Assembly: GCA_045650525.1 (NCBI GenBank)
Contig: JAZRRH010000013.1
Span: forward strand, 43,881 to 107,880
Direction of reading: 5' to 3'
Length of the DNA stretch: 64,000 bases
From: Candidatus Nanosyncoccus sp.
Lineage (GTDB): Bacteria; Patescibacteriota; Saccharimonadia; Saccharimonadales; Saccharimonadaceae
Every line of letters starts with the position of its first letter. The first letter of the stretch is position 1. The notes beneath the pieces are model-generated. The model was given only the letters and a program-made list of their open reading frames with translations. It was not told where the DNA came from and searched no databases. The position numbers and the translations under genes are program-made. Below, piece by piece: positions 21,007-22,551 of this stretch.

Positions 21007-22551
21007 CTACCAATCTTCAACGAGGGTGAATTCTTTGCCGGCGATTTCGATGATAGAGTCCGGTTTGGCGCCTCTGGTAGTGAGTTCGGCGCGGATGCCC
21101 ATCTTTTTCATGATATCGCGAAGCCTATTGACGCTGGCATAGTTATCAAGGTCGGTGCGGCGGGCGAATTTTTCGATCTTTTCACCGGTGACTTTGTAGT
21201 GGTCATCGTCTATTTTTTCGACCTTCCAAGTGTCTTTCATGGCGTTAGGGCTAAGAGATATAGTAGGAATATCAGCATACTGATTTCGCTCATGCTTCAC
21301 AGCGCTCCGGGAAAAATCTTCGTCGGCTAATCGGGACTGCGCCGAAATTTCAGTTTCGTACTCGTCTCGACTATCCTCCTCAGATTTTTCTCGGGCCCCA
21401 CCAATATTCGCGAAATCAGTATGCTGAGATTCCTTCTTATTCTCTTCCACGATCGCGGCTAATTCTCTTAAGAGTTCTGTAAGGCCTTGGTGGGCGGCGC
21501 TTGAGATAGTAAAAATCTTTGCTTCTGGGTTTTTTTCTAAGATAGAAGCCATTTGCATTTTAACAATATCGTCATCGACGCCTTCGCATTTGGTAAGCGC
21601 AACTATCTCTGGGCGAGAAGCGAGGTCGGAGTATTTTTCTAGCTCGTTTCTGATGGTTTGATAGGCCTCGCCGGCATCGTCGTTGTAAATATCGACAAGA
21701 TGGAGCAAAACAGCAGTACGATCAACGTGCCTTAAGAATTCGTGGCCGAGACCTCTTCCTTCGGAGGCGCCCTCAATTAGCCCTGGAATATCAGAGATAA
21801 GTAGGTCTTTATCATCTATGGTAGCGACGCCGAGGTTGGGGGTGATAGTCGTAAAAGGATAATCGGCGATTTCGGGCTTGGCGTTCGAAACGACAGAGAG
21901 AAAAGTGGATTTGCCGGCATTTGGAAGGCCCACAAGACCAACGTCGGCCATTGATTTTAGTTCTAGTTCTGCTTCAAATTCTTCGCCGGGTTCGCCAACT
22001 TCGGCGACCAGGGGTGCTTGGCGGGTGCTGCTCTTGAAATGTGCGTTACCAAAGCCACCGTCTCCGCCCTTTGCGATGACGGCCTCGTCGCCATCGTGCG
22101 TCAGATCGGCCAAGAGGATTCTTTCTCGGGGCGTGTCCGAAACCCCTGTCGACCCTTCGGGTCGTCCGCGTCCCAAGGGGCGGTCGTCCACAGGGGTTTC
22201 GGCGCTACTCCTCGCCTTGCCAGGCTCCGGACCCCCTTCGAAAGAACCTTCTTGGCCAATTCGGTACACCACTGTGCCGACGGGGACGTCGACGATGAGG
22301 TTTTTGCCGGAGCGGCCGGCAGCGCGCTGGCCAGAGCCGTTCTTGCCGTTTTCGGCTTCGAGAATAGGGGTAAAACGAAAGTCTACTAGGGTATTAGTGT
22401 TGCGGTCGGCACGAAAAATAATATCTCCGCCTTTGCCACCGTCACCCCCGTCTGGGCCACCTTTCGGGATATAAATCTCATGGCGAAAAGATACGGCACC
22501 ATTGCCGCCTTTTCCCGCCTTTAAACTCACTTTCGCTTTATCTACAAACAT
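21007..22551 (-). CDS. obgE: GTPase ObgE/CgtA with two in-frame hairpin insertions
   Basis: [34 protein letters not shown] and a C-terminal OCT-like domain. Confidence 0.97.
21272..21427 (-). repeat. In-frame palindromic insertion 2 in obgE (156 bp, family A)
   Basis: Perfect 18-bp IR TCAGCATACTGATTTCGC/GCGAAATCAGTATGCTGA; near-identical to the trmD insertion. Confidence 0.92.
22105..22260 (-). repeat. In-frame palindromic insertion 1 in obgE (156 bp, family B)
   Basis: Outer stem GGCCAAGA/TCTTGGCC plus TTCTTTC/GAAAGAA; inner perfect 13-bp IR CCGAAACCCCTGT/ACAGGGGTTTCGG. Confidence 0.85.

Follow-up and report, generated by a model that had tools for sequence, protein, structure and literature searches.

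Rickettsia palindromic elements (RPEs) occur in low to moderate copy number, and orthologous insertions are common to several species. We know of no transposase that partners them, and to our knowledge the origin, movement and persistence of in-frame palindromic elements of this type have stayed unexplained since the description of 2000. By the usual definition, MITEs carry conserved terminal inverted repeats that match a parent IS and are flanked by direct target-site duplications. REPINs are intergenic, reach high copy number, bear a GTAG or CGTC tag and occur together with a RAYT gene. The described elements RPE-1 to RPE-10 (Ogata et al. 2000) are palindromic repeats of about 150 bp that fall into several families, lie in frame within unrelated housekeeping genes and also in intergenic DNA, and each encode a conserved peptide (PMC10969869). 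MITEs can also be intragenic, as with QMITE1 of Coxiella and intragenic ERIC (PMC10969869, PMC2229807, PMC3184786). A local mutational process, template switching, leads to arm homogenisation, arm expansion and spacer inversion of palindromes (PMC8794818, PMC8604942, PMC13100816).

Here we compare these systems with two palindromic inserts found in the obgE and trmD genes of a Candidatus Nanosyncoccus genome, within a 64,000-nt stretch of one contig that is called the window throughout. Our literature search found no paper on these Saccharibacteria repeats.

Results

Two inserts of one palindromic family

The inserts lie in unrelated host genes on opposite strands (Table 1), as a first-pass annotation of the window had reported. 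The peptides had also been read correctly, DFANIGG...KHERN being residues 379-423 of ObgE and DFANIEQ...KREQN residues 109-153 of TrmD. The obgE insert occupies site 2, in the linker that joins the GTPase domain to the C-terminal DUF1967/OCT domain; a further insertion site, site 1, is within the N-terminal Obg fold. In TrmD the insert interrupts the tRNA_m1G_MT domain, with AREFA on one side and HYIILCPHYEGYD on the other, at a position that holds only 3-11 residues in the families of other orders and in most members of the genus. The two inserts share 93% DNA identity over 114 nt by BLAST and 89% across the inner 114 alignment columns, and are paralogous copies of a mobile palindromic family, as had been proposed, which we call family A.

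Table 1. Positions of the host genes and palindromic inserts in the window.
Feature	Position	Strand	Evidence or remarks
obgE host gene	21007-22551	-	Pfam GTP1_OBG residues 3-97 and onward, MMR_HSR1 203-321, DUF1967 443-508; orthologue alignments
trmD host gene	23526-24338	+	tRNA_m1G_MT Pfam match in two stretches
Family-A element in obgE site 2, whole palindrome (core and private arms), in frame	21253-21446	-	
136-nt core common to family-A copies, obgE copy	21282-21417	-	Alignment A1, 25 copies; consensus of 43 pairs
Family-A element in trmD, whole palindrome	23838-23997	+	Private arms GGTCAGCCGGTAG / CTACCTACTGACC
136-nt shared core, trmD copy	23850-23985	+	
Third family-A copy, intergenic, between the convergent stops of obgE and a LysM/CHAP gene	20819-21002	-	nhmmer E = 1.4e-6
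obgE site-1 insert, different GC-rich palindromic family	22105-22260	-	Fold -99.5 kcal/mol, z -5.7
In-frame palindromic insert of another family, pseudouridine synthase gene (putative rluB)	13359-13511	-	Fold -90.8 kcal/mol, z -4.2

The complementary ends quoted for the two copies, including ATACT/AGTAT versus GGTA/TACC, were confirmed, and the actual stems proved longer than first read. The arms of the obgE element (21253-21289 and 21410-21446) are 37 nt long and 86% complementary, while those of the trmD element (23838-23857 and 23978-23997) are 20 nt long and 90% complementary. The obgE element folds into a rod-like structure at -94.8 kcal/mol and the trmD element folds at -82.3 kcal/mol; with z values of -8.6 and -8.4, respectively, against shuffles, the pairing of both is not due to chance.

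An assembly or binning artefact that joined the two loci might explain such similarity, a danger that the first-pass annotation had itself raised as misassembly or chimerism. No point in support of this reading was found. The copies differ at about 8-12 of the 114 positions, their private arms are distinct, and both host frames continue. The obgE insertion is present in 15 independent NCBI assemblies and several metagenome contigs, and an orthologous trmD insertion in an independent NCBI contig (L078), which refutes an artefact; we regard it as next to impossible.

Further palindromes lie nearby. The third family-A copy has a rebuilt interior, its family-A ends enclosing a different, AT-rich palindrome, and folds at -82.4 kcal/mol (z -10.1). 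The insert at obgE site 1 holds a small nested module, RPLGRGRP, and pairs through its outer stem with host codons that specify ILLADL; this site is empty in the closest orthologues (L034 and L035). The peptide of the insert in the putative rluB gene, GFRSAAARELAP..., resembles the trmD insert of L012, with likeness to the trmD inserts of genomes G017 and G004.

About 30 further full-length copies of family A were recovered at 70-94% identity, and family matches occur in 70 of 369 genomes of the genus. All copies are confined to this one Saccharibacteria genus (Candidatus Nanosyncoccus/Saccharibacteria records), mostly from ruminant gut. A degenerate core pattern, searched in one genome for each of 185,579 species, matched only Saccharibacteria/Nanosyncoccus records; it also matched 13 metagenome contigs and was absent from viral contigs. 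The copies are hosted by obgE sites 1 and 2, trmD, valS, the N-terminus of miaA and intergenic positions, with two or three copies per genome, mostly intragenic.

Translation of the inserts

The proposal that translation filters the copies is supported by the reading frames. Each copy between both halves of a host gene is free of stops in the frame used, and stops are present in intergenic copies (L046, L050 and L051/55/57, as well as the third copy in the window, which has them in all frames). The related claim that only this frame is tolerated is true of the sense orientation, where the two remaining frames contain 2 and 4 stops in the obgE copy and 1 and 4 in the trmD copy. It fails overall, since copies in the flipped orientation use two of the reverse frames: four obgE orthologues use r0 and a trmD uses r2. 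Forward genic copies all encode a conserved peptide. The 45-residue insert peptide gave no Pfam match. The family-A peptide is hydrophilic and probably disordered, with weak backing for disorder from an AlphaFold2 model of ObgE (93 orthologues) that was poor overall, with a mean pLDDT of 56 and both inserts below 50.

If the insert were an intervening sequence that RNA or protein processing takes out, in the manner of an intron or intein, the host proteins would be normal, and the paired ends would indeed bring the two host flanks together. However, genic copies are always open and in phase whereas intergenic copies are not, no Rfam intron family or Pfam domain was matched, and the stems vary from copy to copy, so that there are no conserved splice sites. 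A length of 45 residues is also too short for an intein. This explanation is thus very improbable. The Rfam search covered positions 20700-24400 at E <= 1 and gave no relevant match, with one sub-threshold match to a fungal snoRNA elsewhere in obgE.

Covariation and the private arms

Consensus structure and covariation counts were taken from an alignment of 25 family-A copies (A1). The first-pass annotation had looked to additional copies for covariation, and in this alignment it is strong. The 43 consensus pairs are 95.4% paired, compared with 79.4% in shuffles, and 34 of them show changes on both sides. Double-change cells number 179, compared with 46 in shuffles (0 of 500 reach 179) and at most 31 in slid controls. 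Many of the pair changes are transversion swaps, for example AU/CG/UA at pair 29-107, and wobble intermediates are few. G:U exceeds A:C by 35 to 17, flipped copies included, and this excess tracks the orientation of the element, not that of the host mRNA.

The terminal stems had been described as covarying. They do change and yet remain paired, but they are not simply element ends drifting under selection: the stems are private to each copy, run on past the shared core (by a mean of 20 nt per side) and include inverted host codons. Self-complementarity of the private arms is 13.1 of 20, compared with 8.3 of 20 between the arms of different copies. At obgE site 2, the left arm of the window element encodes EENKKES and is an inverted complement of the host's conserved codons for IPTISL. 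Also at this site the host codons for ELK lie in the stem with those for xIP, and an I-to-L change matches the synonymous GAGCTG form of ELK. Elsewhere the stems take in the codons for ILLADL at obgE site 1 and for KFA in trmD. In the orthologous trmD pair, window versus L078, the arms differ at 6 of 20 positions, 4 of which are compensated, including a change from G:C to T:A. The outermost arm layers decay once formed, the window copy (W), L034 and L035 scoring 18, 16 and 16 of 20. Cores are flipped at the same obgE site (L053/54/56/59) and at the same trmD site (L096 relative to the window), and a flip is also seen in another palindromic family (L010 versus L012).

Collectively, the private arms, the transversion swaps, the flipped cores and the element-oriented G:U excess favour arm-to-arm copying of DNA over selection on an mRNA fold. 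We infer that the covarying terminal stems mostly reflect such copying, and stepwise selection on the mRNA fold explains them less well. The hairpin could instead be a functional RNA structure in the host mRNAs (an RNase III site, an element of stability or translation pausing, or an antisense RNA), with selection on the fold keeping the pairs. Covariation this strong would suit such a role, as would an inner core whose conservation far exceeds that of synonymous sites, also within an orthologous pair, a conserved U:G pair and the roughly 2 to 1 ratio of G:U over A:C. That ratio, however, keeps the orientation of the element in copies antisense to the host gene, and intergenic copies retain the fold in a variety of contexts. 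Many unrelated families are found at these same sites, and obgE site 1 and trmD lack an insert in many orthologues, which ties no host need to any one sequence. The decay of the outermost arm layers and the lack of an Rfam family match also argue against a functional RNA, which we consider unlikely.

In E. coli, template-switch mutations are suppressed by exonuclease I and exonuclease VII. Both are present in the genome, which gives no hint of an unusually permissive background, and missing exonucleases were rejected as the cause of template switching. SbcD was not detected in a shallow search, in which SbcC gave only weak ATPase-like matches; this may help long palindromes survive.

Conservation and turnover

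Between species, identity is 82% for the inner core, against about 40% for the four-fold sites of obgE. For the trmD pair of the window and L078, the core is 93% identical and third codon positions about 59%. Template switching keeps complementarity without slowing sequence change, yet the core is conserved, and some other force must therefore act on it. Either the DNA or RNA sequence is under purifying selection, or active copies repeatedly replace or convert it. This conservation of the inner core beyond host synonymous sites runs against template switching, as does the U:G pair 58-77, retained in 20 of the 25 copies, which simple arm correction should erase.

Core and arms also differ in their history. 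Terminal-helix distance follows host distance (r = 0.56, p = 0.003), whereas inner-core distance does not track it (r = 0.27, p = 0.12). The nearest inner core to that of the window trmD copy belongs to an obgE copy from another species (L034, a difference of 4.5%), with the obgE copy of the window at 10.7%. We considered transfer between species by homologous recombination along with flanking obgE sequence and rejected it, the flanks of pairs with very similar cores (for example window versus L036) being not unusually similar.

Across 120 orthologues the two obgE sites hold at least eight peptide families; the same family can appear at either site, and inserts are nested. Many unrelated palindromic families, some nested, occupy the obgE and trmD sites across species. 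These linker sites are hot spots at which palindromic families replace or nest in one another. Family A at obgE site 2 requires at least 24 changes on the host tree, a rough number, given a FastTree tree of 391 conserved columns and a set of 120 orthologues ranked on their likeness to an element-carrying query.

Marks of insertion and candidate enzymes

Mobility by a classical non-autonomous transposon (MITE, IS200/IS605-type or REPIN-like), mobilised in trans by a candidate HUH/Y1 transposase or RAYT whose need for a hairpin would conserve the structure, has several points in its favour. The core has moved among unrelated genes and is conserved from one species to the next, its inner part does not follow host phylogeny, and the G:U bias goes with the element strand, as expected for a single-strand DNA substrate. 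Against this, we found no target-site duplication, flanking direct repeats in the 25 copies being 0-2 nt as in mismatched controls, and no conserved flanking target motif among the copies compared. The arms are private rather than conserved terminal repeats, and two or three copies per genome are few. Among the 369 genus genomes and the species collection, every match is a short element and none is a long, gene-carrying relative.

A role for an HUH enzyme, of which the first-pass annotation had proposed a test, is without support. A weak search, by phmmer with the single E. coli RayT query against six-frame ORFs of at least 60 aa from one 96%-complete genome, found no RayT-like protein (best E = 0.03, in a spurious 84-aa frame). 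No transposase was evident beside nine copies outside obgE and trmD that were examined, where the neighbours, judged by eye from N-terminal sequences, are housekeeping genes (rpsL/rpsG, gap, eno, the yidC region) and a coupling-protein-like gene. With these points taken together, a classical transposon seems rather unlikely. GTAG, a REP hallmark, abuts the core in a few copies, on either side, and was treated as chance.

Discussion

The reading that we favour, and hold to be probable, is that the inserts are copies of a translated, selfish, non-autonomous and RPE-like repeat specific to this genus, and that template switching, for the most part at the DNA level, maintains, extends and flips its stems. 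Each copy consists of two layers, an inner core of 136 nt conserved across species and outer arms of about 20 nt on each side that are unique to the copy and are in part inverted copies of adjoining host sequence. Template switching at quasi-palindromes during replication or repair would homogenise the arms, extend them into the flank and invert the interior. Family A would land in linkers or loops of essential genes, to be read there as peptide, and it would survive in such genes because of these landing places and because it is open in one sense and two antisense frames.

More tentatively, the palindromes may spread without a transposase, the conserved core being copied into pre-existing short inverted repeats or hairpin tips by palindrome template switching (copy choice) in the course of replication or repair. 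The same process could build the private arms out of host flank, flip the core and nest new modules at the tip. This is a possibility to which we give less than even weight; if true, these repeats would be mobile DNA of a self-templating class, and the Rickettsia elements could have the same explanation.

The genus offers hundreds of species-level genomes in which inserts have come to fill the same two or three linker sites again and again, with flips and nesting. These natural replicates could let ancestral reconstruction date the arrival of the core, the growth of flank-derived arms, inversion and decay. Strong compensatory change, usually read as proof of a functional RNA, can arise from a mutational process at the DNA level. 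Through such repeats the essential proteins of very small genomes gain new disordered segments, and for annotation, odd 'insertions' in Saccharibacteria housekeeping proteins are repeats rather than lineage-specific domains.

Among known systems, template-switch (quasi-palindrome) mutagenesis is a process and not an element family (PMC8794818, PMC8604942, PMC13100816, PMC7202029). Its four signatures, arm homogenisation, expansion, spacer inversion and multi-base compensatory changes, are all found in family A. As a local mutational process, however, it alone explains neither the movement of the core between unrelated genes nor the conservation of the core. IS200/IS605-derived elements have distinct left and right subterminal hairpins and insert 3' of a conserved tetra- or pentanucleotide, whereas the family-A element is one single palindrome and its outside flanks share no motif. 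Similar to REPIN/RAYT and REP sequences, which are long hairpins of two inverted halves with compensatory change between the halves (PMC3733652), family A is a long hairpin with compensatory change between its halves, but it is mostly intragenic, present at two or three copies per genome and without a consistent tag, and no RayT homologue appeared in the single-query search. With MITEs family A shares the character of short, non-autonomous, hairpin-forming repeats capable of in-frame fusion to host ORFs; it differs in its private terminal arms, and the absence of target-site duplication, and no parent element appeared among the matches, all of them short.

The RPEs are the closest likeness. 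In size and fold, the family-A core of 136 nt (160-194 nt with arms) forms a rod-like structure of 43 pairs with z values of -8.4 to -10.1. As with the RPEs, family A lies in frame in unrelated intact genes (obgE, trmD, valS and the N-terminus of miaA) as well as between genes, it encodes a conserved peptide, and at least eight families are seen at the obgE sites. The host in both cases is a host-dependent bacterium with a small genome. Saccharibacteria are nevertheless an unrelated phylum, and we know of no sequence relationship between RPEs and family A. The core pattern is limited to Saccharibacteria/Nanosyncoccus records among one genome for each of 185,579 species, and on that pattern family A works like an RPE and is not a member by descent. 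Several of its features go beyond those described for RPEs in PMC10969869, namely private arms derived in part from the inverted host flank, flips at the same site, hot spots where multiple families replace and nest in one another, and an inner core that outlasts the synonymous sites of its host.

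Family A copies in obgE and trmD

The obgE and trmD inserts carry one palindromic repeat, family A, made of a shared 136-nt core and outer arms private to each copy. At the DNA level BLAST gives the two copies 93% identity over 114 nt, the inner 114 alignment columns give 89%, a 31-nt inner stem is present in both alike, and both are predicted to fold into rods with energies far below those of shuffled sequences (z -8.6 for obgE and -8.4 for trmD). The first-pass annotation had proposed that these insertions are paralogous with covarying terminal stems. The two peptides it quoted do lie in unrelated proteins, at ObgE residues 379-423 and TrmD residues 109-153, and its quoted end pairs are present in both copies, the actual stems being longer than it had stated (37 nt in obgE and 20 nt in trmD). 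Misassembly or chimerism, which it had named as a possible artefact, is excluded because the trmD insertion also occurs in an independent NCBI contig (protein P0122 on contig L078). A third, diverged copy has an AT-rich palindromic interior of another kind between family-A ends.

Family A copies, host genes and other palindromic features of the window, with further rod-like hairpins on contigs (C) of the source genome
Feature	Position	Strand	Remarks
obgE (host gene)	21007-22551	-	
trmD (host gene)	23526-24338	+	
obgE copy, stem arms	21253-21289 and 21410-21446		37 nt, 86% complementary
trmD copy, stem arms	23838-23857 and 23978-23997		20 nt, 90% complementary
Third copy, diverged	~20837-20989		just past the obgE stop; profile built from the obgE and trmD copies
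obgE site-1 insert	22105-22260	-	GC-rich palindromic family unlike family A; RPLGRGRP module nested at centre
Pseudouridine synthase insert	13359-13511	-	in-frame, palindromic
Rod-like hairpin	C4:17333-17466		
Rod-like hairpin	C4:54380-54538		
Rod-like hairpin	C11:4052-4192		
Rod-like hairpin	C11:11291-11453		
Rod-like hairpin	C13:140140-140290		
Rod-like hairpin	C14:65523-65622		
Rod-like hairpin	C14:76069-76159		
Rod-like hairpin	C18:6716-6810		
Rod-like hairpin	C21:2921-3110		

Covariation and private arms

We aligned 25 cores (138 columns). The prospect that additional copies might show no covariation is decisively contradicted, because 179 cells were changed on both sides of a pair compared with 46 in shuffles, a count that 0 of 500 shuffles reached, and slid controls gave at most 31. 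RNAalifold placed 43 pairs on this alignment, 34 of which changed on both sides, and 95.4% of cells were paired on that structure versus 79.4% in shuffles.

The palindrome runs ~20 nt past the core on each side (range 4-44). The sequence of this extension varies from copy to copy, yet is complementary within each: arms of the same copy are complementary at 13.1 of 20 positions versus 8.3 of 20 for arms of different copies, and left arms compared between copies share 7.2 of 20 bases. The stem arms consist partly of host codons. At obgE site 2, conserved ELK codons pair with codons just ahead of and inside IPTISL; species with GAATTGAAG show CTTCAATTC on the opposite arm, while those with the synonymous GAGCTGAAG have CTTCAGCTC opposite, so that the conserved Ile becomes Leu. 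An additional left segment, EENKKES, in the window and the two relatives closest to it is the inverted complement of the right-hand IPTISL codons. At obgE site 1, where the closest relatives have no insert, the host ILLADL codons recur as their inverted complement in the left arm (IGQEG); in trmD of loci L010 and L012, the insert's final codons pair with (R)KFA codons of the host. No target-site duplications were found, the flanking direct repeats being 0-2 nt long as in controls.

A proposed DNA-level origin of the terminal stems

Replication template switching at inverted repeats leaves arm homogenisation, arm expansion and spacer inversion as its signatures (PMC8794818, PMC8604942, PMC13100816). 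Many of the pair changes in family A are swaps that are impossible via a wobble pair (AU/CG/UA at 29-107, GC/CG at 61-75, AU/UA at 33-103), and one-sided changes are few. In the orthologous trmD pair of the window and L078, whose genes are 84% identical (~59% at third positions), the 20-nt arms differ at six positions, four of them mirrored on the other arm; the outermost pair shows a mirrored change from G:C to T:A. The core is flipped at the same site in both obgE and trmD, and in another family the L010 and L012 inserts, flanked by the same host-derived arms, are exact reverse complements of each other. G:U mismatches exceed A:C (35 versus 17), and likewise in copies that run antisense to the host gene; this is weak evidence as the copies are related. 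The outermost arm layers decay after formation (18/20 in the window copy, 16/20 in both L034 and L035). We infer that template switching at quasi-palindromes would produce most of the apparent covariation of the terminal stems.

Template switching leaves the conserved core unexplained. In a set of 12 orthologues with a forward site-2 copy, identity across host obgE is 74% overall, falling to 47% at third codon positions and to 40% at four-fold sites; across the element it is 82% over the inner 114 nt and 54% over the terminal 24 nt. The inner core is likewise ~93% identical in the window and L078 trmD pair, and the core of the trmD copy is nearest to an obgE copy of another species. Terminal-helix distance tracks host distance (Mantel r = 0.56, p = 0.003) whereas inner-core distance does not (r = 0.27, p = 0.12; r = -0.16 once the closest trio is dropped). 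The outer layers therefore behave as local, vertically inherited DNA, and the core either is constrained at the level of its sequence or is renewed time and again by active copies.

Host sites and reading frames

Most copies share the location of the window copy in obgE orthologues: this site 2 falls between LLREL(K) and IPTISL, within the linker that leads from the GTPase domain to the C-terminal DUF1967 domain. Family A occupies site 1, inside the Obg fold, in genomes L037 and L042 and metagenome contig L092, and both sites in a single protein, P0004. Other hosts are valS, with the insert between the catalytic and anticodon-binding domains, and miaA, with the insert in an N-terminal extension; at least seven copies are intergenic. 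A family-A-like subfamily whose right end is longer occurs between genes in three genus genomes (L051, L055 and L057), adjoining a gene with an N-terminus that resembles a type IV coupling protein (TraG/VirD4-like).

As the annotation had noted, the other two sense frames contain stops in the obgE and trmD copies. Its view that only one frame is tolerated holds for forward genic copies, which all share a single reading frame, but not for flipped cores, which are translated in reverse frame r0 in four obgE orthologues and in frame r2 in one trmD (L096). Its proposal that translation filters the copies is upheld, because genic copies keep one used frame, read through, and intergenic copies carry stops: two in the coding frame of L046, one in that of L050, and stops in all frames in the window's third copy and L051, L055 and L057. 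In flipped orientation, the element is tolerated in more than one frame.

Insertion hot spots, turnover and nesting

Inserts of 20-71 residues from several families occupy the trmD site in 11 of 24 sampled genus genomes, and 9 of the 12 examined form strong hairpins; in the remaining genus members, and in every other family of the order, the site spans just 3-11 residues. This hot spot lies directly upstream of the motif C-P-H-Y-E-G-Y-D, found in the window and all genus sequences, in place of which most other families of the order (5/6 sampled) have C-(G/A)-R-Y-E-G-Y-D.

Among the 120 best obgE orthologues, all carry a site 2 insert and all but 17 a site 1 insert of at least 18 residues. At least eight peptide families are recognisable among obgE inserts, with the same families at either site and in trmD. 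On a host tree built by FastTree from 391 columns, without those of the insert, family A requires at least 24 changes at site 2 for its 37 carriers, against a mean of 31.9 and minimum of 26 in shuffles; the count is rough, given this tree and a sample biased towards the query.

Inserts are nested at the centre of resident elements in the orthologous proteins P0042 (in family A), P0107, P0096 and P0118 and at the window's site 1; the nesting is clear in the first three, which are ObgE orthologues. Chimeras with family-A ends and other interiors comprise P0070, P0072 and the window's third copy. The small RPLGRGRP module is also nested in other families of other species (P0118, P0053), and a similar module lies within the window's pseudouridine synthase insert, whose peptide (GFRSAAARELAP...) matches the trmD inserts of two other species, L012 and, in the opposite orientation, L010.

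Distribution, mobility and known systems

The source genome (741 kb, 24 contigs, 96% complete) belongs to a genus in which BLASTN matched 70 of 369 species genomes, with ~30 full-length copies at 70-94% identity. In a scan of one genome per species across 185,579 species, a degenerate 35-nt pattern from the core matched 15 records, every one Candidatus Saccharibacteria or Candidatus Nanosyncoccus and from loci already found in the genus search; those naming a host came from the gut of sheep, goat, yak or buffalo. The pattern also occurred in 13 metagenome contigs and in no viral contig, and the element matches no Rfam family.

An E. coli RayT query gave no RayT-like ORF in the source genome, none of the genes beside nine examined copies looked like a transposase, and the genus and species-collection matches included no long gene-carrying relative. 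Rod-like hairpins at least 90 nt long number 12 or more in the source genome; beyond those of the window, nine of 90-190 nt lie elsewhere in that genome, one of them within an open frame of 1033 aa. Long palindromes could persist more readily if the hairpin nuclease SbcCD were lost: SbcD was not detected in this genome and SbcC gave weak hits alone, to ORFs of 255-282 aa. The genome encodes exonuclease I (E = 1e-96) and exonuclease VII (XseA E = 4e-56, XseB) of the E. coli kind.

Our literature search found no published description of such elements in Saccharibacteria. By their defining tests family A is not a MITE, having no target-site duplication around it, nor does it qualify as REPIN/RAYT or as an IS200/IS605-derived element. 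It works like the Rickettsia palindromic elements (PMC10969869), but is no member of that group by descent.
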